Shown here one piece after another: positions 6,858-16,868 of a DNA stretch of 35,344 bases (its first letter is position 1; every line of letters starts with the position of its first letter). Below the pieces are notes generated by a model. That model ran no database searches, had not been told where the DNA came from, and saw only the letters and a program-made list of their open reading frames with translations. Location of the stretch: the NCBI GenBank assembly GCA_046542505.1, contig JBKHBH010000012.1, positions 1 to 35,344 of the forward strand. The letters are read 5' to 3'. A program made the translations under genes and the position numbers. The stretch is from Thermovirgaceae bacterium (GTDB taxonomy: Bacteria; Synergistota; Synergistia; Synergistales; Thermovirgaceae).

Positions 6858-7385
6858 TTACCAGACCGGTATGCTTTTCCGGATCAGTCCTTCCACAAGA
6901 GGAAGATCGTACACCTGTACGAAAAGGACCCTTTCCGGAAGCACCCTGAATAGCTCATACGACACTTCTTTCCAAGGCTGCGCGAATTCTATCCTGTTTT
7001 GCCCGAAGCGCTCCGACCCGACCCGTAGAAGCAGCGTTTTCCATCGCCTTCGCCCGCCTCGGAAGACGAACCATTCAGGACCGGTGCTGAAGGATCCGTT
7101 CCTCGGAAATTCCGCCGGAAGGCCCGCGTTATGGGATTTGACCCGTTCCTGCCATTGCCATATCCATCCGCTGGATATCACGTATTCGTCTTCAACGGGT
7201 GTCTTCTGGACCGAATGGGTATATGTCGTCACCAGACGTTGTCCGAGGGGTACAGGAACACGAAGCCAGGTTCCCCTTTTTTCAGAAAGGGCAATCACTG
7301 AAACGGGAGAACAGAGGATAATAACACAGCTTGAAACTACGAAAAGCAATAAAAAATACATGCGAAGGCTGCGCAGCATTTTCAT
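6858..7385 (-). CDS. DUF1850 family protein
   Basis: N-terminal hydrophobic segment, YTHSVQKTPVEDEY, SHNAGLP; directly upstream of a fused TRAP permease as is usual for this family. Confidence 0.85.
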   Translation of the reverse strand: MKMLRSLRMYFLLLFVVSSCVIILCSPVSVIALSEKRGTWLRVPVPLGQRLVTTYTHSVQKTPVEDEYVISSGWIWQWQERVKSHNAGLPAEFPRNGSFSTGPEWFVFRGGRRRWKTLLLRVGSERFGQNRIEFAQPWKEVSYELFRVLPERVLFVQVYDLPLVEGLIRKSIPVW

Positions 7386-7430
7386 TCTCCATCTTTACCA
7401 AGGTTGGTCGTTCCGCCCGCTTCCGTTGTC

Positions 7431-8078
7431 CTAGTCGCTTTTTTCCTCGATTCCCGAAAGAAGTGGCACGAAACGACAGTAATCGTACCAGGTGTCTTTC
7501 AATCCCGTTTCGCCCTTTACTCTGAGAAGCAGTCGCTCTGTTCCAAACGAAACCTTTACCGGGGCCAGGATTTTCCCGCCGACAGATATTTGCTTTTCCC
7601 ACTCGGGGTGGACCTTGTCTGCTGCAGCTGTGACGAGAACCCGATCGTAGGGGGAGAACTCTTCCAGGCCTTCGCATCCGTCCGAAATCCTGACGACAAT
7701 GTCATATCCTGCGGCTGACAGGTTTTGTTGCGCCTGAAGGGCAAGGGCTGGAATTCGTTCGATGCTGTAAACATGCGCTCCGAGCTCTGCCAGAACGGCC
7801 GCCTGGTAACCCGATCCCGTACCGACCTCAAGAACGCTGCAGCCGCTACTTACATCCAGAAGTTCCGTCATTCTCGCAACCATGTAGGGTTGCGAGATTG
7901 TCTGCCCGTAGCCGATAGCCAAGGGGTAATCGTCATAGGCCAAGGCCTGGTCCCGAGGGCGGACAAAAAGGTGCCGCGGGACATCCATAAAGGCCCTGAG
8001 GAGCTCCTCCTGCCTCACACCCCTTGGAGCGATCTGTGTTTCGACCATGTGTTTCGCCCGTTTCCGCCAGTCTTGCAT
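7431..8078 (-). CDS. pcm: Protein-L-isoaspartate O-methyltransferase
   Basis: VPRHLFV, AYDDYPLAIGYGQTISQPYMVA, VLEVGTGSGYQAA, PYDRVLVTAAA, CRFVPL. Confidence 0.97.
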   Translation of the reverse strand: MQDWRKRAKHMVETQIAPRGVRQEELLRAFMDVPRHLFVRPRDQALAYDDYPLAIGYGQTISQPYMVARMTELLDVSSGCSVLEVGTGSGYQAAVLAELGAHVYSIERIPALALQAQQNLSAAGYDIVVRISDGCEGLEEFSPYDRVLVTAAADKVHPEWEKQISVGGKILAPVKVSFGTERLLLRVKGETGLKDTWYDYCRFVPLLSGIEEKSD

Positions 8079-8166
8079 CAGACATCACCACGAACCACAT
8101 TTTACCAGATCAACGGGATTCAACCGGACCATAGTGGGAAATACGACAATGACCTGCTCAGGCCAC

Positions 8167-8197
8167 AAAAAACCCGACAGGAGAAAACCTGCCGGGC
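8167..8197 (-). terminator. Rho-independent terminator downstream of tRNA-Arg
   Basis: Minus strand GCCCGGCAGG-TTTTCT-CCTGTCGGGT followed by TTTTT, 8 nt after the tRNA CCA end. Confidence 0.8.
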
Positions 8198-8205
8198 AAT
8201 ATTTC

Positions 8206-8281
8206 TGGCGGGCCTGGCCCGATTCGAACGGGCGACCTACGGCTTAGGAGGCCGTTGCTCTATCCCCTGAGCTACAGGCCC
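8206..8281 (-). tRNA. tRNA-Arg(CCT), 76 nt, encoded CCA
   Basis: GGGCCTGTAGCTCAGGGGATAGAGCAACGGCCTCCTAAGCCGTAGGTCGCCCGTTCGAATCGGGCCAGGCCCGCCA: 7-bp acceptor stem, anticodon loop CTCCTAA, GTTCGAATC T-loop. Confidence 0.97.
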
Positions 8282-8284
8282 GGA
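8249..8284. repeat. att direct repeat copy 1 (tRNA nt 1-33 plus 3 nt of leader)
   Basis: AGGCCGTTGCTCTATCCCCTGAGCTACAGGCCCGGA; 35/36 identical to 14923-14958. Confidence 0.93.
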
Positions 8285-8297
8285 CTGACAGGTCAAT

Positions 8298-8326
8298 ATG
8301 ATATCCGCCATGCCGCATTTTTGCAA
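8298..8326 (-). promoter_or_regulatory. Sigma70-type promoter for tRNA-Arg, located inside the island
   Basis: Minus strand TTGCAA-N17-TATCAT ending 16 nt before the mature tRNA 5' end. Confidence 0.7.
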
Positions 8327-8449
8327 GGGTTCACAAGCTTTTTCGGAGCCTCCTTCGTTACTGCCCATTTTGGCAGGTAAGGCCCTCAAAATGACCGTGG
8401 CCGATGCTCTAAAATGCCCCTTTTCTCCGCCTTTGCAGGGTTGACATTT

Positions 8450-9126
8450 ATGGAAGAAAGAGCCCATATTGTTTTGTTTCGGGAAATGTTCGGGTCCTGG
8501 GAGGAGACCCTGGAAGCCTTCATTCTGTTCAGGAAGGATGAAGGGTTTGCCGACAGGACACTCAAGGACTACCGCTATACCGTCTCCCGTTTCTTCCGGG
8601 AGCACCCCACAGCATGGGACCCATCAAATACCCGGGCCGCTGTCTTGTCTTATCTCGGGCAAGACGGTATCGCACCGACGACCTTCATCATACGAAGGAA
8701 GTATCTCAAGGCATTCTTCTCGTGGCTTGTGAAAGAAGGAGCCTTCCCGGAAAACCCCGTTCGTGGCATCCGGACCAGGAAGGCGGAACCCCGTGTGGTG
8801 CAGCACTCGGCAGAGATTCTTCAAAAACTTCTCCGCCTTCCCGACAAGTCTTCCTATTGTGGTAAGCGTGACTCTGCACTCATGTGCCTGTCCCTCGATA
8901 CAGCCATCCGGCCCTCTGAAGCACTCTCGCTTCTTATAGAAGATGTGGACCTTGAAGACATGTTAGTCAACATTAGAGCATCCATAGCAAAGACTCGCAG
9001 GAGCCGAATACTCCTCTTCTCAACAGAAACGGCAAAGTCAATTCAGGGCATGCTCATGGCACGGCCCAAAGAATGGGGCTCACCTTTTCTTTTTACCAGC
9101 CATGAAGGGAAGCAATTCAGAGCCTC
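8450..9126 (+). pseudogene. Tyrosine recombinase/integrase, C-terminally truncated
   Basis: SAM-like N-domain (RTLKDY, LKAFFSWL, ENPV), RDSALMCLSLDTAIRPSEAL (catalytic Arg) and KTRRSR (Lys). Similarity ends at the IS end at 9127, with no HxxR or catalytic Tyr. The frame runs on to a stop at 9205 inside the IS. Confidence 0.85.
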
Positions 9127-9492
9127 AGTCAAGTCCCAGAACTGCGGTAAATTTGGACCCGGTTACATATATTCACCGCCACGTCCTCTGATTGAGCCAT
9201 GTTGACTGGCTGTTTCATTGAGGCCTTTCCTTCCGTTCCCGTTCCGCCTTCGATTCCAGCGCATGCTTGAGGAGGTCCTTGACCACCGATTGAAGGCAGG
9301 TCTAGTCTCCCTGCAACAGGGACTGGACAATTTCGTTGTCAAGATTTCTGTCGTTTTTGTCACCGGTTCACCCCTTCGGTTTGTGTTTTCTCACTGACTA
9401 CACTGTAACCGAAGTCCCGGTGGTTTTTGTCTTCCCATCGATTGCCGCTTTTTTTTCAGACGACTTTTTTACAGCACTTCAGGGGCTCGATC
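9127..9492 (-). mobile_element. Internally deleted IS256-family element (366 bp, both ends retained)
   Basis: Imperfect terminal inverted repeats AGTCAAGTCCCAGAACTGCGGTAAA (9127-9151) and GATCGAGCCCCTGAAGTGCTGTAAA (minus, 9492-9468), 18/25 identical. The minus strand has RBS+GTG at 9363 and a frameshifted NLDNEIVQSLLQGD*TCLQSVVKDLLKHALE resembling IS256 transposase N-termini. Confidence 0.7.
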
Positions 9493-9627
9493 GATCCGCC
9501 CGCAGTTCAAAGTCCTAATGTAACCCTCTTCCTCAATGTTAAAATTATTGAAAGTTCCGCCTTGCATTTAAAGCCTCGGCGAAGGACCCGCTAAAAATTC
9601 GGGCGGAACGGAAAGGTCTGTTTCCAA

Positions 9628-10965
9628 ATGGCCCTTACCCACCGGATCCAGGAATTCGCAGGACCTCTTTCCAACAGGGACATCCGGGCAAACATCGGCT
9701 GGCTTTTGTCCGAAAGGGGCTTCCGGCTGATCGTGAGTTTTCTGGTCAGTATACTTCTGGCCCGTTACCTGGGGCCTCCAAGACTGGGGATCCTCAACTA
9801 TGCCCTCTCGCTGAAAACCTTCTTCGGCGCTTTCGTCTACATGGGGCTGAGCGGACTGCTGGTAAGGGAAATCGTCCGTTCTCCACAAGAAGAACCGGTA
9901 CTCATGGGTACCACCTTCGTCCTGAAAATGCTGGGGGCTTTTTTGGGTTTTCTGATCCTGGCCACCTTCGCCTTCGTTACTGATCCCGCCGCCGGGACCG
10001 AATTCATGGTGGTTTTCATTATTGGTCTAAGTCTCTTCCCGGGAGCCTTCGAGTGCATCGAGTTCTGGTTCGAGGCTTACGTGAGATCCAAATATTCTGC
10101 AATCGCAAAGAACATCGGTTTCACCCTCTCCTCGGGCCTGAAAATCCTGCTGGTTTTCTTCAACTGTGGGCTGGTCACCATAGCCGTCGTTTCCGCCCTG
10201 GAATTTTTTCTCTCGGGAGCCTTGCTGGCGCTCTTTTACTCCCACAAGGGAGGAAAAATCAAGGCCTGGACCTTCCACCTGGAAAAAGCTCTTTACCTGT
10301 TGAGCCAGTCCTGGATAATAATCCTTTCCGGTTTTCTGTCCATGGTTTACCTGAAGGTCGATCAGGTAATGCTGAGGTTCATGGCAGGAACGAAAGGGGT
10401 CGGAATCTACTCCGTAGCAGCCCAGATCTCGGAAGTCTGGTATTTCATAGCCATCTCCATTGCCGCCTCCGTTTTTCCCAGGCTTATCAAACTCAGGAAG
10501 GAAGATCCTGCGCTCTATCACAAGAACCTCCAGCAGGTTTTCGACGTGCTGTTCGTAATATCGCTGACTGTTGCTGTAATATTCCAGATACTGGCGGGAA
10601 GGCTTGTACCGCTTGTTTACGGCGAAGCATACCGGGAGACGGCGGTGATACTGCAGATCCATATATGGGCCGGAATCTTCATGTTCCAGAGGGCCCTGTT
10701 GAGTAGATGGTTTTTCATAGAGCACGCCCTGCGCTTTTCCCTCTACAGCCACGGTCTGGGAGCTCTTTCGAACATCCTGCTTAACCTGGCGCTGATTCCT
10801 GTACTAGAGGGCCGTGGAGCAGCCGTGGCAACAATAATAAGTTATGGTATGTCCTCCTACTTTTTCCTTTTCCTCTGGTCCATGACAAGGCCCATGGGAA
10901 GGATGATAACCAGATCCTACATGCTCCCGCTTCGACTTTATTCAAAATGGAGGCAGGGAAGATAA
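9628..10965 (+). CDS. wzx: Wzx-type oligosaccharide flippase (MOP/MATE-like)
   Basis: ANIGWLLSER, LARYLGP..G, YLKVDQVML, GIYSVA, NILLNLALIP..GAAVAT; many transmembrane segments. Confidence 0.92.
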   Translation: MALTHRIQEFAGPLSNRDIRANIGWLLSERGFRLIVSFLVSILLARYLGPPRLGILNYALSLKTFFGAFVYMGLSGLLVREIVRSPQEEPVLMGTTFVLKMLGAFLGFLILATFAFVTDPAAGTEFMVVFIIGLSLFPGAFECIEFWFEAYVRSKYSAIAKNIGFTLSSGLKILLVFFNCGLVTIAVVSALEFFLSGALLALFYSHKGGKIKAWTFHLEKALYLLSQSWIIILSGFLSMVYLKVDQVMLRFMAGTKGVGIYSVAAQISEVWYFIAISIAASVFPRLIKLRKEDPALYHKNLQQVFDVLFVISLTVAVIFQILAGRLVPLVYGEAYRETAVILQIHIWAGIFMFQRALLSRWFFIEHALRFSLYSHGLGALSNILLNLALIPVLEGRGAAVATIISYGMSSYFFLFLWSMTRPMGRMITRSYMLPLRLYSKWRQGR

Positions 10966-10966
10966 A

Positions 10967-12286
10967 ATGCTCACCCTTTCGGATGTAATCCAAAACCGGC
11001 TTTGCTGCAGCTGCGGCGCCTGCTCCGCGGCCTGCCCGACGGGCGCGGTGGATTTCGTGGAAACCACCGGGGGCAATATCCAGCCCCACATCGATCACGA
11101 AAAGTGTATTTCCTGCGGACGCTGCGTATCCGTCTGCCCAGGTGCGAGGCTCGCCGGCGAGGTACTCCGTAACATGCCCGAAGACATCTTTTCCGGCAAC
11201 GTCCTGGGATCTTACGTGGGAAAGGCCGGATACAGGGAAATCCATGAAGGAGGACAGGGGGGAGGTGTTGTCACTGCCCTTCTGCGGCATGCCTTCGAAA
11301 ATGACATGATAGATTCAGCAACGGCGGTTTCCATGGGATGGGGAGCTCCACCGAGGCCTCAACCAAGGCTTATAACCGACGTCGAGGAGCTTTACCTTGC
11401 CCAGGGATCGAAATACGCGCCGGTCCCCCTGCTTTCGGTACTCAAGGACAACGCTGAAAAAGGCCACCGGATAGCTTTCGCAGGCCTTCCCTGCCAGGTT
11501 CAGGGGCTGAGGAACCTGGCTTCCGTGGTTCCCGCTTTTCAGGAGAAAATCGTCATCACCATTGGTCTTTTTTGCGACCGGACCCTTACGGCGGCGGCAA
11601 TTGACTTTCTGATAACCGAAGCAGGGCTGACAAAAGATGACCGGTGCAGGCTCTCTTTCAGGGACAAGTCCTGCGGCGGCTTTCCGGGCAACGTATCGAT
11701 AAGGACCGAAGACGGCCGAACAAGGGTGCTCGAGGCAAAAAAACGCATGGAGATAAAGGATCTTTTTACCCCGCCGCGGTGCAGGATATGTTTCGACAAG
11801 ATGAACGTCTTTTGCGACCTGGCGGTGGGAGACCCTTGGGGAGTCAGGGAATATGACAGGAACCAGGGTGAATCCGTCATTGTCACAAGAACAAAAAAAG
11901 GGGAAAACTTCCTGGATTCGGCCATGGCTTCGGGGTCTATTCTGGCCAGGGAAGCTTCCTGCTACAGCATCCTCAAAGGGCAGCGCATTCACGAGAAACG
12001 AAGGGTTTGTACGAACTACCTGGCGGCCTGGAGGGATTTGGGCTATCATTTACCCGACTATGCGAAAAAAATCATGGATATTCCTGCGTCTTCTTCCGGT
12101 AATTTCCGCCGCTCCCTTCTCAGATCCGTAAGACTGGACGATTTAGCCTCCCGCAGGGAGCTTCTGGAAGAAGCAGCAAAAGAAACGCGATTTGTAAAAA
12201 TAAAAAGTAGCCTACAGTTTCCCTTGAAAATACTCCGTGGAATGATATCCTTCGCAGCCGCTTTTTTCAATGGGAAGAAGGAGTGA
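10967..12286 (+). CDS. Coenzyme F420 hydrogenase/dehydrogenase beta subunit (FrhB/FdhB)-like protein with N-terminal 2x[4Fe-4S] domain
   Basis: CCSCGACSAACP and CISCGRCVSVCP, GGVVTALL, QGSKY, GLPCQV, IGLFC, CRICFD, DLAVGDPW. Confidence 0.9.
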   Translation: MLTLSDVIQNRLCCSCGACSAACPTGAVDFVETTGGNIQPHIDHEKCISCGRCVSVCPGARLAGEVLRNMPEDIFSGNVLGSYVGKAGYREIHEGGQGGGVVTALLRHAFENDMIDSATAVSMGWGAPPRPQPRLITDVEELYLAQGSKYAPVPLLSVLKDNAEKGHRIAFAGLPCQVQGLRNLASVVPAFQEKIVITIGLFCDRTLTAAAIDFLITEAGLTKDDRCRLSFRDKSCGGFPGNVSIRTEDGRTRVLEAKKRMEIKDLFTPPRCRICFDKMNVFCDLAVGDPWGVREYDRNQGESVIVTRTKKGENFLDSAMASGSILAREASCYSILKGQRIHEKRRVCTNYLAAWRDLGYHLPDYAKKIMDIPASSSGNFRRSLLRSVRLDDLASRRELLEEAAKETRFVKIKSSLQFPLKILRGMISFAAAFFNGKKE

Positions 12287-13440
12287 CAAAAGTGTTTATT
12301 GAAATCAAGGGGGCGGAGTTCGTCAACAGGGGGGCGGAACTTATGCTCCGGGCGATCCTTCAGCGACTGCGGCCAGAGTTCCCCGGGGCCTGTTTTGTCC
12401 TTGCTCCATGGCTGGGCCGTGACAATAAGAAAAAAAGAGAGGAACTGGGGCTTTACAAAAAAATTTGGTTTCCTTCAAAGTGGGGTATCCAGCCGGGCTA
12501 CCTGGGCAACCTGGTTCCAGAAAAATTACGCAGGATCCGTGGATTTGTTGTTCATAACGAGATTTCCGTGGCCCTCGACTCTTCGGGCTTCGCTTATACC
12601 GACCAGATGGGAGAGGACAAGACCCTGGACATGGCAAAGGCCGCCAAAAGATGGGGCAAGCTGGGAACTTCGGTCGTCCTGCTACCCCAGGCTTTTGGAC
12701 CCTTTTCCTCCCGGAAAATTCGCTCGGCTTTCAGAACCATAGCCGAAAACTCCGAATACATCTTTCCCCGGGATGACGTATCCTACAGGTACGTTACGGA
12801 ACTGGCCGGGGAATCCCCCCGGATCATCCAGGTACCGGATTTCACCATAGGGGTAAGGGGCGTTGTCCCCGAAATCTTTCCGGAGGGACGCGTCGCAATA
12901 GTCCCAAACAGACACATGATCGGCAAAACGTCCAGGGAGGAAAGTTCAAGGTACGTGCCGTTTCTGGTATCCTGCATAAGAACCCTTGTTTCGGCCGGTG
13001 AAAAACCTTTCTTCCTGATCCACGAAGACAAAGGGGACCTGGAGATTGCCGAAAAAATTAATGCCGAATTTGATCCAGGCCTTTACATATACCAGGAAGA
13101 AGACCCCCTGCGTCTGAAGGGGACCATCGGCAGGTGCAAGGGAATGATAGGCTCCAGATTTCACGGCCTGGTAAGCGCGCTTTCCCAGGGAATACCGGCT
13201 TTCGCCGTAGGATGGAGCCACAAATACGAGGCTCTTTACAGGGACTTCAACTTTCGCGAGGGCATGCTTTCCCTGGACCTGGAAGGGCGGGAACTCGAGG
13301 ACAGGTTGAAGCCCCTGCTTGATCCCTGCTCGGGGAAAGAACTCAGCGTCAGATTGGAATCTGCAAAAGAGGAAAACATGATAAAAGTCGAAAAAATGTG
13401 GGAGTTAGTTATCGGACTCATTAGGAGCAAAACTGGCTGA
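12283..13440 (+). CDS. Polysaccharide pyruvyl transferase family protein (WcaK-like)
   Basis: NRGAELML, LPQAFGPF, IFPRDDVSY, VPD, IGSRFHGLVSALSQGIP, WSHKY; GTGA overlap with the upstream stop. Confidence 0.9.
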   Translation: MTKVFIEIKGAEFVNRGAELMLRAILQRLRPEFPGACFVLAPWLGRDNKKKREELGLYKKIWFPSKWGIQPGYLGNLVPEKLRRIRGFVVHNEISVALDSSGFAYTDQMGEDKTLDMAKAAKRWGKLGTSVVLLPQAFGPFSSRKIRSAFRTIAENSEYIFPRDDVSYRYVTELAGESPRIIQVPDFTIGVRGVVPEIFPEGRVAIVPNRHMIGKTSREESSRYVPFLVSCIRTLVSAGEKPFFLIHEDKGDLEIAEKINAEFDPGLYIYQEEDPLRLKGTIGRCKGMIGSRFHGLVSALSQGIPAFAVGWSHKYEALYRDFNFREGMLSLDLEGRELEDRLKPLLDPCSGKELSVRLESAKEENMIKVEKMWELVIGLIRSKTG

Positions 13441-13505
13441 AACCATCAAGCAGTATGAATTTGCAAGAAGGACTATCCCGGCAGAAAGGCATGCAGAGGA
13501 ACCTG

Positions 13506-14429
13506 ATGAAGACAAAGATAAGTATCATAGTCCCGGTATACAACGACCCAGAGGGGTTGAAAGACACCCTGGAATCCCTCGTGGCCCAGGATTTTCCACG
13601 GTCAGGTTTTGAAATTGTGGTCGTGGACAATGGTTCCACCGACAACACCCACGAATTGGCAGAAAGTTTCTCCGCACTTCACCCGAACATCGTCAAGGTG
13701 GCCATTGAAGCCAGGTTCAGGACATCCTACGCGGCCAGAAACAAGGGCATAAGGAGCAGCTCAGGGGAAATTCTGTGTTTCATAGACGCCAATATGACGG
13801 TGGATTCAGACTGGCTCAACAAAGTGTCAGAGCTTTTTTCCTCGGAAGCGGTGGACGCCGTCGGGTTTCACGTCAAGATCATGAGGGAAAACGGCTCCGG
13901 CATAACATCGCTGTACAACAAGGTCACGGGATTTCCCGTCAAAAGATATATCGAAAGAGCCGGTTTCGCCCCGACCTGCTGTCTGGCCGTAAGGCATTCG
14001 GTAATAGAACAGGTCGGCCCTTTCGACTGGCGGTTGATGTCCAGTGGAGACGTGGAATTCGGACACCGCCTTACAGGATCGGGGTTTTCTCTCCATTACG
14101 AAGCTTCCATTGTTATGTATCATCCCGCACGGGAAACCTTCGCCTCTCTGACCAAAAAATACGTGAGGATAGGAAGGGGATTGAGGCAGCTGAGAGTTTT
14201 CTATCCGGAAAGGTACAAGCCCTCGTATTTCATGAAACGGAACCAGCTGCCCCTGAATCCCATGGAATTCACCGAATGGGTCCGTAATACCCCGGAAGCC
14301 GCAAAACACTGGATAGGGATGACCATACTGCTTTATTGCATAGCCTGGTTAACCAAATTCATCAAGATCTTCGGCTATTTCAAAGAAGCGCTGAAACCAA
14401 AAAGGCTTCCCCAGCTTGGAACGGAGTAA
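13506..14429 (+). CDS. Glycosyltransferase family 2
   Basis: ISIIVPVYN, EIVVVDNGSTD, AARNKGI, ILCFIDAN. ATG 13506 has GAGGA upstream; the frame is open from 13455. Confidence 0.92.
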   Translation: MKTKISIIVPVYNDPEGLKDTLESLVAQDFPRSGFEIVVVDNGSTDNTHELAESFSALHPNIVKVAIEARFRTSYAARNKGIRSSSGEILCFIDANMTVDSDWLNKVSELFSSEAVDAVGFHVKIMRENGSGITSLYNKVTGFPVKRYIERAGFAPTCCLAVRHSVIEQVGPFDWRLMSSGDVEFGHRLTGSGFSLHYEASIVMYHPARETFASLTKKYVRIGRGLRQLRVFYPERYKPSYFMKRNQLPLNPMEFTEWVRNTPEAAKHWIGMTILLYCIAWLTKFIKIFGYFKEALKPKRLPQLGTE

Positions 14430-14459
14430 CACCCGGAAGCCGCAAAACGCCCGCCCGCT

Positions 14460-14867
14460 TCAGCAGGGAAGACCCTTTTTGCAGACGGTGTCAATGTTCA
14501 TGAGAATCTCGATATTTTCCAGTGGATTTTCGTCCAGCACGATAAAATCGGCCGCCTTCCCCTCTTCCGGCATGCCTAAACGGCCGTCGATCCCGAGTAC
14601 TTCCGCGGCCTTCCCCGTGGCGGATTTCAGCGCATCCATTGCTGACATACCCGCATCCATCATCAGCTTGAGCTTTAGGGCGGCCCCATCGTGCAGGTTG
14701 AAGGAAGTTTCCGAGTCAGTGCCCAATGCCACCTTGACACCCCTTTCGTGGGCTTCTCTGAAGCTTTCCAGGTGAAGGTCGGATATTCTTTTGGCCTTTT
14801 CCACCGCGAAGGAATGAATCCCCCATCGAAGCCGTGTTTCGTGTTTTATTATGAAATAAGGCGCCAC
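14460..14867 (-). pseudogene. Metal-dependent amidohydrolase, C-terminal fragment
   Basis: GVKVALGTD, AGMSAMDALKSATGKAAEVLG, EGKAADFIVLDENPLENI. The N-terminal metal-binding region is absent and there is no room for it before the att repeat. Confidence 0.8.
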
Positions 14868-14922
14868 CAGTTCGGAGGTAGTAAACTTTTGGGGATAGCC
14901 GAGTTTCGGTATACAAACAGGA

Positions 14923-14958
14923 AGGCCGTTGCTATATCCCCTGAGCTACAGGCCCGGA
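14923..14958. repeat. att direct repeat copy 2 (displaced 5' fragment of tRNA-Arg)
   Basis: AGGCCGTTGCTATATCCCCTGAGCTACAGGCCCGGA; one mismatch to 8249-8284; no T-arm or CCA follows. Confidence 0.93.
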
Positions 14959-14994
14959 AAACAGAGGATATATTGCCATGGGTGGAGTTTGAGT

Positions 14995-15942
14995 TCAATG
15001 CTCGCAGGACCCGGTATAAGAGATCCCCTGTCCATCCTTCGCCAGCCAGATGCCGAGTTTTTCTCCCAAACGATCCCAAGTTTGCCGGGTATGTGACACA
15101 TCGGCTCTAATCCTGGCAAGAAGTTCCTCCACACCGGCAAAACGCATCTCGTTCCTGATCCGGTCGAAAAAAAACAGATAAAGTTGTTTCCCGTACAAAT
15201 CATTTTCGCAGCCGAGAATATGGGCTTCGACACGAAGTCCCCGTACTCCATTGAAAGTCGGGTTGTATCCGATGTTGACGGCTGAGGGATAAAGGCCCCA
15301 TTCACAGAGGACCGCACCGGAGTATACGCCCCTGTCGGGAACAGTCTTTTCAGGAGGAAGACGAAGATTCGCCGTCGGGAAACCGAGCTTTTGGCCCCTT
15401 CCGTCACCGTGAACGACATTTCCCATAACAAAGAAAGGGTACCCCAACATTTCGCCGGCAGCGGCAACATCACCGGCTGTGACCATTCTCCTGACGGCGG
15501 AACTGCTTACTTTTTCGTTTTCCACCAGAACAGGCGGGACGACACGGACATCCCATCCCTTTTTTTCGCCAAGGGACCTCATCAATGCCGCATCCCCGCT
15601 TCTTGCCTTGCCAAACCGAAAGTCCTCTCCCACGACAACACCCTGTAGAAAATATTTTTTTTCAAGACAATCGACGAATTCTTCCGGTGAGAGCTCCGCG
15701 AGTACTCGCGTAAAGGGCAGACGGATTAATTCGGGAATTTCAAGCTTTCTGACAAGAAAATCTTTTTCCCTTTCCGTAAAGAGCATCGGAAAAGGCGCTT
15801 CTTTCAAAAGGGACTGGGGATGCGGGAAAAAGGTGATAACACCCCAGGAGTCGTGTTTTCGCTCCGCCATCTTCCGGGCTTTTGAAAACAGCTTCCGGTG
15901 TCCCCTGTGAAAGCCGTCAAATGCTCCGATCGCGGCGATCAT
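14995..15942 (-). CDS. ribF: Bifunctional riboflavin kinase/FAD synthetase
   Basis: IGAFDGFHRGH, VVGEDFRFG, VSSSAVR, GFPTANL, NIGYNPTF, EAHIL, IRNEMRF. Confidence 0.97.
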   Translation of the reverse strand: MIAAIGAFDGFHRGHRKLFSKARKMAERKHDSWGVITFFPHPQSLLKEAPFPMLFTEREKDFLVRKLEIPELIRLPFTRVLAELSPEEFVDCLEKKYFLQGVVVGEDFRFGKARSGDAALMRSLGEKKGWDVRVVPPVLVENEKVSSSAVRRMVTAGDVAAAGEMLGYPFFVMGNVVHGDGRGQKLGFPTANLRLPPEKTVPDRGVYSGAVLCEWGLYPSAVNIGYNPTFNGVRGLRVEAHILGCENDLYGKQLYLFFFDRIRNEMRFAGVEELLARIRADVSHTRQTWDRLGEKLGIWLAKDGQGISYTGSCEH

Positions 15943-16868
15943 GGATCCCGTCGACGCCCCTCTCCGATCAAAATGTTCGTCTCAGGCTTGAGCATGGTTT
16001 TTCCGGCGGTACGCACGCATTTTGCAAAAGAGAAGACACCTTTTGCCTGGAGAACAATGATCCCCGTATCCTCATGCCCTCCCCAGTTCTTCCTTTCGAG
16101 CTGTTCCGGTCCCAGGGCATTCCCGTTACGCAGAAGCTCACTGGATTCAGGGGGCACTATATAGTGCGGGAAGGCATCGGCAAGGATTTCCGGACCTTTC
16201 AAGTTTTTCTGGATGCAACCATCTTCCAGATCCTCCGCCTTCATTGCCTCGGAAACACTGAAGGGACCGATGGCCGTTCTCTTCAATTTCAATACGGAGG
16301 CAAAGGTCCCAAGCATCCGTCCCAGATCCCGGACGATGCTCCTTACATAAGTCCCCTTCCCACATTTCACGTTAAACCTGATGGTTCCCGATTCACAATC
16401 ATACTCGTAGAACCTGATATGCGATATATATACTGCCCTTGCAGGCAGATCAACGGGTTTTCCCTCCCTGGCAAGACAATGGGCTCTTTTCCCGCCGATG
16501 TGGACGGCGGAAATCCTGGGTGGTCTTTGATATGTCCATCCAAGAAATGCCGCAAGAGTCCGTCGGATCTCCTTTTCCGACACGCGGGTCACACCGGAGG
16601 TTGCTACCGGGGATCCCTCGCTGTCGAGGGTATCCGTTTCCATACCCAGAAGGGCCGTCACGTCATACGTCTTGGGGAGGCACATGACATACTGCGAAGC
16701 TCTGGTCATCCTTCCGAAAAGCAGAACGAGCAGGCCCTCAGCCGTGGAGTCGAGCGTCCCTGCATGACCTACTTTCACCCTGCGGCCGAGATGTTTTCGA
16801 AGGACGTTGACGCAGGCTGTGCTCCTTGAACCTCTCGCTTTATCCAGAAGGAGAAAACCGGTTTCCAT
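15939..16868 (-). CDS. truB: tRNA pseudouridine(55) synthase
   Basis: KVGHAGTLD, ETDTLDSEG, QRPPRISAV, CGKGTYVRS, LKRTAIGPF; position between rbfA/DHH and ribF. Confidence 0.96.
   Translation of the reverse strand: METGFLLLDKARGSRSTACVNVLRKHLGRRVKVGHAGTLDSTAEGLLVLLFGRMTRASQYVMCLPKTYDVTALLGMETDTLDSEGSPVATSGVTRVSEKEIRRTLAAFLGWTYQRPPRISAVHIGGKRAHCLAREGKPVDLPARAVYISHIRFYEYDCESGTIRFNVKCGKGTYVRSIVRDLGRMLGTFASVLKLKRTAIGPFSVSEAMKAEDLEDGCIQKNLKGPEILADAFPHYIVPPESSELLRNGNALGPEQLERKNWGGHEDTGIIVLQAKGVFSFAKCVRTAGKTMLKPETNILIGEGRRRDP

Follow-up and report, generated by a model that had tools for sequence, protein, structure and literature searches.

Does the DNA between ribF and the tRNA-Arg(CCT) gene of this Thermovirgaceae bacterium derive from a mobile element that was inserted on the 5' side of its target tRNA? 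The stretch analysed here, referred to as the window, comprises positions 1 to 35,344 of contig JBKHBH010000012.1 (assembly GCA_046542505.1), and the interval in question lies at 8282–14958. Very probably, this interval is what is left of a small integrative element that was inserted upstream of the tRNA gene, then decayed in place and can no longer move. The only tRNA that ARAGORN called across the window is tRNA-Arg(CCT) (8206–8281, reverse strand), and a search of the whole assembly revealed no further full copy of it. The longest direct repeat within 7000–16500 has one copy beside the integrase gene (8249–8284, no strand assigned) and the other, an orphan, at 14923–14958 (reverse strand); the copies are 36 nucleotides (nt) long, identical at 35 of 36 positions, and consist of tRNA nt 1–33 plus 3 nt of leader. 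In a search of the genome's own assembly the second copy scored E = 4.9e-11, and the sole mismatch, G22 to T, disrupts a pair in the D-stem. An earlier reading of this DNA (the original prediction) had described the repeat, its extension with a 1-nt gap across the CCT anticodon and the position of the orphan 36 nt downstream of ribF; the repeat and its gapped extension were recovered by our searches, and 36 nt is indeed the distance from the ribF stop codon to the repeat end. The locus therefore has the layout of an upstream island, with a repeat made of the 5' part of a tRNA and an orphan that is oriented like the intact gene and located on its upstream side. An integrase gene is located inside it, beside the attachment (att) site; this gene is truncated here and intact in three related genomes (G004, G002 and G024). 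The corresponding open reading frame (ORF; 8414–9205, forward strand) is directed away from the reverse-strand tRNA, as had been predicted. Base composition failed to distinguish the island from its surroundings.

The tRNA-Arg(CCT) locus was retrieved from 19 related genomes (20 regions), onto which the window proteins and the tRNA were mapped. An empty site, at which ribF, the tRNA and pcm are directly joined, was observed in 12 of the 19, including two members of the window's genus (G003 and G005; the others are G006, G008, G010, G013, G014, G015, G016, G017, G018 and G035). This is the ancestral arrangement that the original prediction had proposed. At the empty site of G005 the last ribF codon is separated from tRNA nt 1 by 42 nt, and the same distance separates ribF from nt 1 of the orphan in the window. 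Three of the 19 genomes carry different islands at this site, each in the order ribF, 5' copy, island, integrase homologue directed away and intact tRNA. G004 (CP159918.1), a closed chromosome from a cultured member of the window's genus, has a 5' copy of nt 1–67, an island of 12.3 kb and an integrase that is 85% identical; G024, from another family, has a 5' copy of nt 1–46/47 and an integrase that is 46% identical; and the occupied site of G002 is split across two contigs, both of which break in the repeat. The tally leaves out G001 and G009 (contigs end at or in the tRNA), G030 (no pcm) and G026. The last of these was dropped as an island of this family, as the 7 kb between its ribF and tRNA contain neither an integrase nor a tRNA fragment. 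The outcome that the original prediction had named as damaging, relatives that share the cargo and have no empty site, was not encountered: 12 sites are empty and the cargo occurs in none of the 20 relatives. As separate observations, the interval between ribF and tRNA-Arg(CCT) of G026 (L050 2096–8468) encodes a CorA transporter and two proteins with Mrr-type restriction-endonuclease domains, one of them with HARE-HTH, and the G004 island (L035 10629–13039) also carries a second, unrelated tyrosine integrase of 341 amino acids (aa), a full IS256-type transposase (407 aa) and an ankyrin-repeat protein (267 aa).

Which of the two 5' parts belongs to the host was addressed by junction alignment. 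In G004, the leader on the ribF side is identical to that of the empty site of G003, and the leader on the integrase side is of the G005 type; since the former is native and the latter foreign, the 5' part beside the integrase was imported with the element. The original prediction had likewise placed the tRNA 5' part on the element, an arrangement that recurs consistently across the integrase family described below. The window leader beside the integrase differs from the native leader beyond 3 nt and is common to the metagenomic element L068. Within it, a promoter scan located a promoter-like site borne by the element, TTGCAA-17-TATCAT (8298–8326, reverse strand; 9/12), 16 nt upstream of the tRNA 5' end, and transcription of tRNA-Arg(CCT) would start from this promoter. 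The native leader with its promoter remnant was placed by junction alignment at 14959–14994 (reverse strand); the promoter scan of this leader made no call, and its -10 element reads CAATAT versus TAATAT in the sequences of seven relatives. Both this change and the D-stem-breaking G22T would fit relaxed selection on the orphan. The intact gene, established as the only copy by ARAGORN and the own-genome search, would be a chimera of an element 5' part and a host 3' part according to the junction alignment. It is followed by the native terminator hairpin of the tRNA gene (8172–8197, reverse strand; terminator scan), which is kept after the tRNA in the empty sites.

Judged from its sequence, the window integrase is a truncated pseudogene, and this copy is predicted to be unable to move by itself. 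The truncated Xer-like tyrosine integrase occupies 8450–9120 (forward strand) and corresponds to approximately residues 1–222 of 312, as delineated by Pfam PF00589, tblastn and alignment to the intact integrases of G004 and G024. The PF00589 match covers profile positions 9–108 of 172 only. DNA homology to the relatives ends at 9120, beyond which the ORF continues to 9205, and the ATG at 8450 is probably the true start. Intact homologues comprise 312–319 aa, and the window protein aligns to about residue 222 only. Tyrosine recombinases share catalytic residues in the order R, K, H/Y-x-x-R, H/W and Y. Residues R154, K181, R251, H252, H274 and Y283 are invariant in six intact relatives; the window protein is devoid of the LRH, GHS and Y boxes, the region of R251/H252, H274 and Y283 being gone, and hence its catalytic set is incomplete and without the nucleophilic Tyr. 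The truncation adjoins a remnant of an insertion sequence (IS) of the IS256 family and is therefore linked to an IS event. This remnant (9127–9492, no strand assigned) is internally deleted, with both ends and no transposase: 9127–9256 and 9242–9492 match the two ends of an intact element of ~1.35 kb with a Transposase_mut ORF (1.1e-108 in the matching element of L117). Its assignment to IS256 is based on termini common to copies that encode a Mutator-type transposase, and at least nine full copies of the element are present in G004. Many contigs of G024, and of the genome to which the window belongs, have ends of this IS at their termini.

Far-end sequences of related elements revealed what the window has lost. 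Beyond the integrase, 5' copies in the correct orientation extend to nt 47 in L059 and L064, 49 in L073, 65 in L102, 67 in G004 and 68 in L072, with leader identity of 28 to at least 59 nt; L061, of conventional geometry, has a far-end 3' copy that starts at nt 22. A conserved module comes after the tRNA copy in all seven aligned far ends; it comprises a terminator hairpin and, behind this, a tRNA-like site, termed S3, whose consensus TTTAGGAGCGTCGGCCTGT mimics tRNA nt 20–33. The far end of L068 has the same terminator-S3 layout, and the module recurs among elements with different tRNA targets. The tRNA segment of G004 and its S3, ~110 nt apart, have 14 identical nt in common. The sequence after S3 in G004 and L068 is represented in the window by a conserved element end at 14868–14922 (reverse strand; 83% over 66 nt to L035 5018–5083, with the same flank in L068). 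Here the tRNA fragment is joined at nt 33 straight to this S3-following sequence, and the terminator module is absent. A deletion between the tRNA segment and S3 yields just this junction at nt 33, which is therefore secondary and not a mark of the crossover; the far-end att site of the window is damaged too. From the repeat search and the far-end alignments, the orphan comprises 3 nt of host leader and tRNA nt 1–33, of which the last 12 nt may be derived from S3. The repeat end at nt 33 was rejected as the crossover point, as the orphans of intact relatives run to nt 47–68 and that of the window is fused to the S3 flank.

A second tRNA-like site, S1, is located at 8398–8412 (reverse strand), 38–52 nt upstream of the integrase ATG, where it mimics tRNA nt 20–34 with three mismatches. 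Its position is conserved in five of five aligned elements; it usually lies ~50 nt upstream of the integrase start (68 or 83–86 nt in two sub-groups) and is found on the tRNA-sense strand. A loose S1 motif was detected in 43 of 46 loci versus none of 46 control windows inside the integrase gene. In Arg-CCT elements S1 is an exact match to the target, and in His elements it tracks the tRNA-His stem; no such agreement is seen in Glu or Trp elements. We consider S1 and S3 to be candidate accessory sites that the integrase may bind. As for the crossover, nt 22–47 are the only stretch common to the blocks of identity in reversed relatives and those in conventional ones. Because the part of the element's attachment site (attP) that lies 3' of the crossover is never exchanged, these identity limits bound the crossover to nt 22–47, and our best guess from the alignments is an exchange in the anticodon stem-loop or arm. 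The anticodon-loop crossover of the original prediction thus survives as a best guess drawn from this overlap, and the repeat end at nt 33 no longer counts as evidence for it.

Is the reversed geometry a property of this locus or of the integrase family? Integrase-alignment scans yielded 12 loci from genomes (mostly Synergistota) and 49 from metagenomes. At 47 loci, the integrase shares 47% or more of its residues with that of G004. A tRNA (30 loci, by ARAGORN) or a tRNA 5' piece (13, by BLAST) lies no more than 600 nt upstream in divergent orientation at 43 of them, an arrangement that the original prediction had proposed to look for among full-length homologues, and none has a co-oriented tRNA; the other four have no orientation call (three with <200 nt of upstream DNA, and L097 with 780 nt). 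The ARAGORN targets are Arg-CCT (12), Gly-TCC (6), His-GTG (4), Glu-TTC (4), Trp-CCA (2), Gly-CCC (1) and Arg-TCT (1). At eight of the 14 more distant loci, the integrase gene and its tRNA (Arg-CCG, Lys-CTT or Ala-TGC) are co-oriented; none of the 14 is divergent, and six have no call. A tree was built from 46 full-length integrases, excluding every partial match and one locus that contains an internal stop, and the known orientations require one change only on it. It contains a main reversed clade of 33 rows, a second reversed clade of 5 and a conventional clade of 6, with SH-aLRT (approximate likelihood-ratio test) supports of 100, 99 and 96, respectively. The integrated copies of G004 and G024 and many metagenomic ones have uninterrupted integrase ORFs of 312–319 aa, with the tRNA 113–260 nt upstream (516 nt in one); in none of these does attP lie inside the integrase ORF or is the gene split, which sets them apart from the 'suicidal' integrases of SSV/pTN3 type, whose attP is within the ORF so that integration splits the gene. 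By sequence, the G004 integrase is a predicted two-domain protein that is Xer-like in architecture only: its best PDB match is 4a8e, XerC-like (7e-23), and it scored below the NCBIfam cut-offs of XerA_Arch (125.5 bits vs 220), XerC (121.9 vs 335) and XerD (111.4 vs 330).

Three unusual arrangements were noted within this family. Beside the integrase of L085 (9806–9876), L087 (1–55) and L084 (1–23) is a tRNA-like chimera without an ARAGORN call, in which the first 14 nt match tRNA-His and nt 7–77 match tRNA-Arg(TCT); it could be the product of an off-target integration by which a tRNA gene was broken or is being retargeted. In L086 (11–283), a second leader with a copy of tRNA nt 1–38 lies between the intact tRNA-Gly(TCC) and the integrase, with an S3-like site in between, and the arrangement looks like the scar of an earlier, nearly fully deleted element in a tandem array. 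The integrases of L075 (290–338) and L080 (2438–2486) adjoin a tRNA-Arg(CCT) 5' piece of nt 1–49 only, surrounded by S3-like and S1 sites and without a 3' half; these two may be the free attP form or an inner array junction, and L068 may be a free or array form.

The history that we propose would be as follows. A two-domain Xer-like tyrosine integrase would insert the element on the 5' side of the tRNA gene, by means of an attP that would consist of a promoter-bearing copy of the tRNA 5' part (the whole tRNA in some relatives) flanked by S1 and S3. Recombination would occur within the tRNA body, most likely in the anticodon stem-loop; the host promoter and tRNA 5' part would be left as an orphan beside ribF, and tRNA-Arg(CCT) would be rebuilt beside pcm from the promoter and 5' part of the element and the 3' part and terminator of the host. 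Thereafter, the C-terminal third of the integrase with its RH, H and Y motifs would have been lost at the IS256-family remnant, the far-end pseudo-tRNA and terminator module would have been deleted between tRNA nt 22–33 and the near-identical S3, and what now fills the interior is a glycan-modification cassette seen in no related element. The truncation, the IS remnant and the S3 fusion are directly observed, as are the repeat and the empty and homologous occupied sites; the order of the decay events is one that we infer.

Several observations weigh against this history or against the family-wide pattern on which it draws. The cargo (9500–14867) is without a DNA match in the 20 relatives or any of the 61 related loci, and it may never have travelled with the element. 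There are 17 reversed loci with a tRNA called by ARAGORN and 5 kb or more of DNA beyond the integrase; a far copy was found in only nine of them, a count that includes three identical tRNA-His loci and G004 (copy from a longer fetch). No such copy was found in L070, L079, L081, L083, L089, L095 or L109 within the locus sequence at hand, and in L058 S3 lies at the contig end; the displaced 5' fragment that the original prediction had proposed to look for at the far end of the homologues was thus recovered for some of them and not for the rest. The tRNA-His elements are flanked by two complete tRNAs with the same terminator, so that 'upstream' is set only by the element's own ends. The 47% cut was picked after the data had been seen, many of the loci are near-copies and not independent, and the tree, rooted at the midpoint, comes from a quick search and does not settle the mutual order of the three clades. 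No excision product or activity was observed, and the window integrase cannot be active. Lastly, the pcm-side junction (8284–8330) is not bridged by any independent contig piece listed.

This last point bears on the suspicion that the contig of a metagenome-assembled genome falsely joins an island to ribF-tRNA-pcm by way of the tRNA sequence. The genome consists of 142 contigs, and contigs of several relatives break inside this very tRNA; in one run, a low-depth skip of 106 nt was seen from 8341 to 8448, to which we attach no weight. The repeat is only 36 nt long, however, and two studies supplied contigs that span the ribF-side junction, namely a 3412-nt contig from the probable source run that covers 12376–15300 and a 420-nt contig from another study's run that covers 14770–15189 without differences. 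Moreover, the closed chromosome G004 displays the same architecture with the order int-tRNA-pcm, and the int-leader-tRNA junction sequence of the window recurs in the independent contig L068, all of which makes such an artefact very unlikely. The second copy might instead be a decayed full tRNA paralogue, which the original prediction had named, or a local duplication, with ordinary chromosomal genes in between. One might be led to it by the far copies of G004 and L068, which resemble a near-complete pseudo-tRNA with its own terminator, and by the tRNA-His loci, at which both copies are complete. The empty sites contradict it, as they hold a single tRNA, 42 nt after ribF and with pcm adjoining; in addition, what continues the far copies on their 3' side is a module conserved among elements with different tRNA targets, and a homologous integrase is present at every occupied site. 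We give practically no credence to this explanation.

Closer to the proposed history is the idea that the occupied locus was imported from a related strain, already decayed, by homologous recombination via the ribF and pcm flanks; the island mechanism would be the same and would have acted elsewhere. The integrase is dead and the far-end site damaged, members of the genus have the site either empty or occupied in different ways, as in a mosaic, and leaders of one genome type occur in elements of another, all of which is compatible with import. Against it stands that no donor with the same interior was found in the 20 relatives, and nothing separates import from decay in situ. We regard import as rather improbable, and insertion followed by decay in place is retained as the preferred reading.

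Insertion upstream of a tRNA gene is rare and already described, and the novelty of the geometry had been overstated in the original prediction. In the pelagiphages HTVC021P, 022P, 201P, 121P, 105P, 109P and 120P, the core overlaps the 5' end or the middle of a host tRNA gene, and the phage, like the elements described here, supplies a partial 5' end by which the disrupted gene is complemented (10.1101/410191). These are podoviruses of SAR11, which we liken by geometry and not by integrase sequence, and an S1/S3 architecture is not reported in the portion of that paper available (10.1101/410191). Klebsiella arg2 islands with clade I.d integrases are integrated upstream of a tRNA-Arg gene, with a repeat that is the 5' part of the tRNA (10.1101/2020.11.02.365908). 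Their repeat comprises only the acceptor 5' strand, D-stem and D-loop ('D-loop sublocation'), whereas that of the window's family runs through the anticodon arm to nt 47–68; furthermore, the I.d integrases have the classical island-integrase domain set according to the authors, in contrast to the short Xer-like protein of this family (10.1101/2020.11.02.365908). The pTN3-like integrases of Thermococcales use the 5' half of a tRNA gene as the host attachment site (attB) and rebuild a full tRNA that is parted from its original promoter (PMC8371274, PMC5495485); such use of the 5' half is described as 'seldomly encountered in bacteria' (PMC8371274). Their attP lies inside an integrase ORF that is split on integration, and they are archaeal, unlike the present bacterial family, in which attP is external to the ORF and integration has left the G004 gene whole (PMC8371274, PMC5495485).

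The closest named relative that we found is the integrase of Moorella phage MTATph1 (OR602862.1), which shares 42% identity over 95% of the G004 integrase. MTATph1 is a 177-kb phage of a Bacillota host, and its annotated tRNA lies 99 nt upstream of the integrase gene and is co-oriented with it, which is the conventional geometry, unlike that of the window's family. Islands of the Islander type share with the window a tyrosine integrase beside a regenerated tRNA and a displaced tRNA fragment at the far end; their fragment is usually a 3' part located downstream, and that of the window is a 5' part located upstream (PMC4383910). The only configurations that Islander filters out are 5' fragments on the downstream side and 3' fragments on the upstream side, and the claim that island finders would miss the present geometry consequently does not hold for this program, which accepts an upstream 5' fragment (PMC4383910). 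A reversed clade in Synergistota was not met in the literature searched, whose coverage of 5'-side integration is incomplete. The parts of interest are the clade-wide flip of orientation and the conserved S1 and S3.

A broader reading is offered tentatively, with somewhat more reserve than confidence. A Synergistota-wide clade of short Xer-like integrases would have gone over in its entirety to the reversed geometry, with the element upstream and supplying the promoter and 5' part, and the nearest phage and island relatives in Bacillota would have stayed conventional; the flip would be possible because the crossover falls in the dyad-symmetric anticodon stem-loop. Under the same reading, these elements would have an undescribed attP layout, a promoter-tRNA-terminator cassette bracketed at ~100–165 nt by S1 and S3 as direct copies of the D-stem/anticodon-stem segment, which would replace arm-type sites in an integrase without an arm-binding domain; S1 and S3 would partly co-vary with the target and permit hopping among at least seven tRNA species. 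One integrase family with both orientations, each bound to a clade, would amount to a natural experiment on the direction of integration at a symmetric tRNA site, and S1 and S3 are directly testable as candidate accessory binding sites of a minimal two-domain integrase. For the host, the only tRNA-Arg(CCT) gene would rely on a promoter and 5' half from an element unable to leave, a concrete case of a mobile element that permanently rewires an essential gene. The lesson for island finders is modest: upstream 5' fragments should be permitted, as Islander does, and fragments can bear long leader identity or be complete tRNAs.

The island is flanked by host genes on both sides, pcm (7431–8078, reverse strand; protein-L-isoaspartate O-methyltransferase, Pfam PCMT 1.3e-48) downstream of the tRNA, which is syntenic in the 12 empty sites, and ribF (14995–15942, reverse strand; Pfam FAD_syn and Flavokinase) upstream of it. 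Intact relatives of the element are 5–12 kb in size and have a primase-polymerase/helicase replication module; G004 and L073 encode an NrS-1-type primase-polymerase and a D5_N/DUF5906 helicase, and L068 (~5.2 kb) encodes a Lin1244-type protein. When the cargo of the window was searched across the 20 relatives, only the IS ends matched. This cargo consists of genes for a Wzx-type polysaccharide flippase (9628–10965, forward strand; Pfam Polysacc_synt 1.4e-23), an FrhB/FdhB-like iron-sulfur protein (10967–12286, forward strand; Pfam FrhB_FdhB_C 3.7e-29, FrhB_FdhB_N and Fer4), a polysaccharide pyruvyl transferase (12283–13440, forward strand; Pfam PS_pyruv_trans 1.7e-31) and a family-2 glycosyltransferase (13455–14429, forward strand; Pfam Glycos_transf_2 2.7e-27), followed by a C-terminal amidohydrolase fragment (14460–14867, reverse strand; Pfam Amidohydro_1 9.2e-20) that covers profile positions 219–342 of 345 only. 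The FrhB/FdhB-like and pyruvyl transferase genes (10967–13440) overlap by 4 nt and lie beside the flippase and glycosyltransferase genes; together with these neighbours, they look like a compact glycan-pyruvylation cassette.

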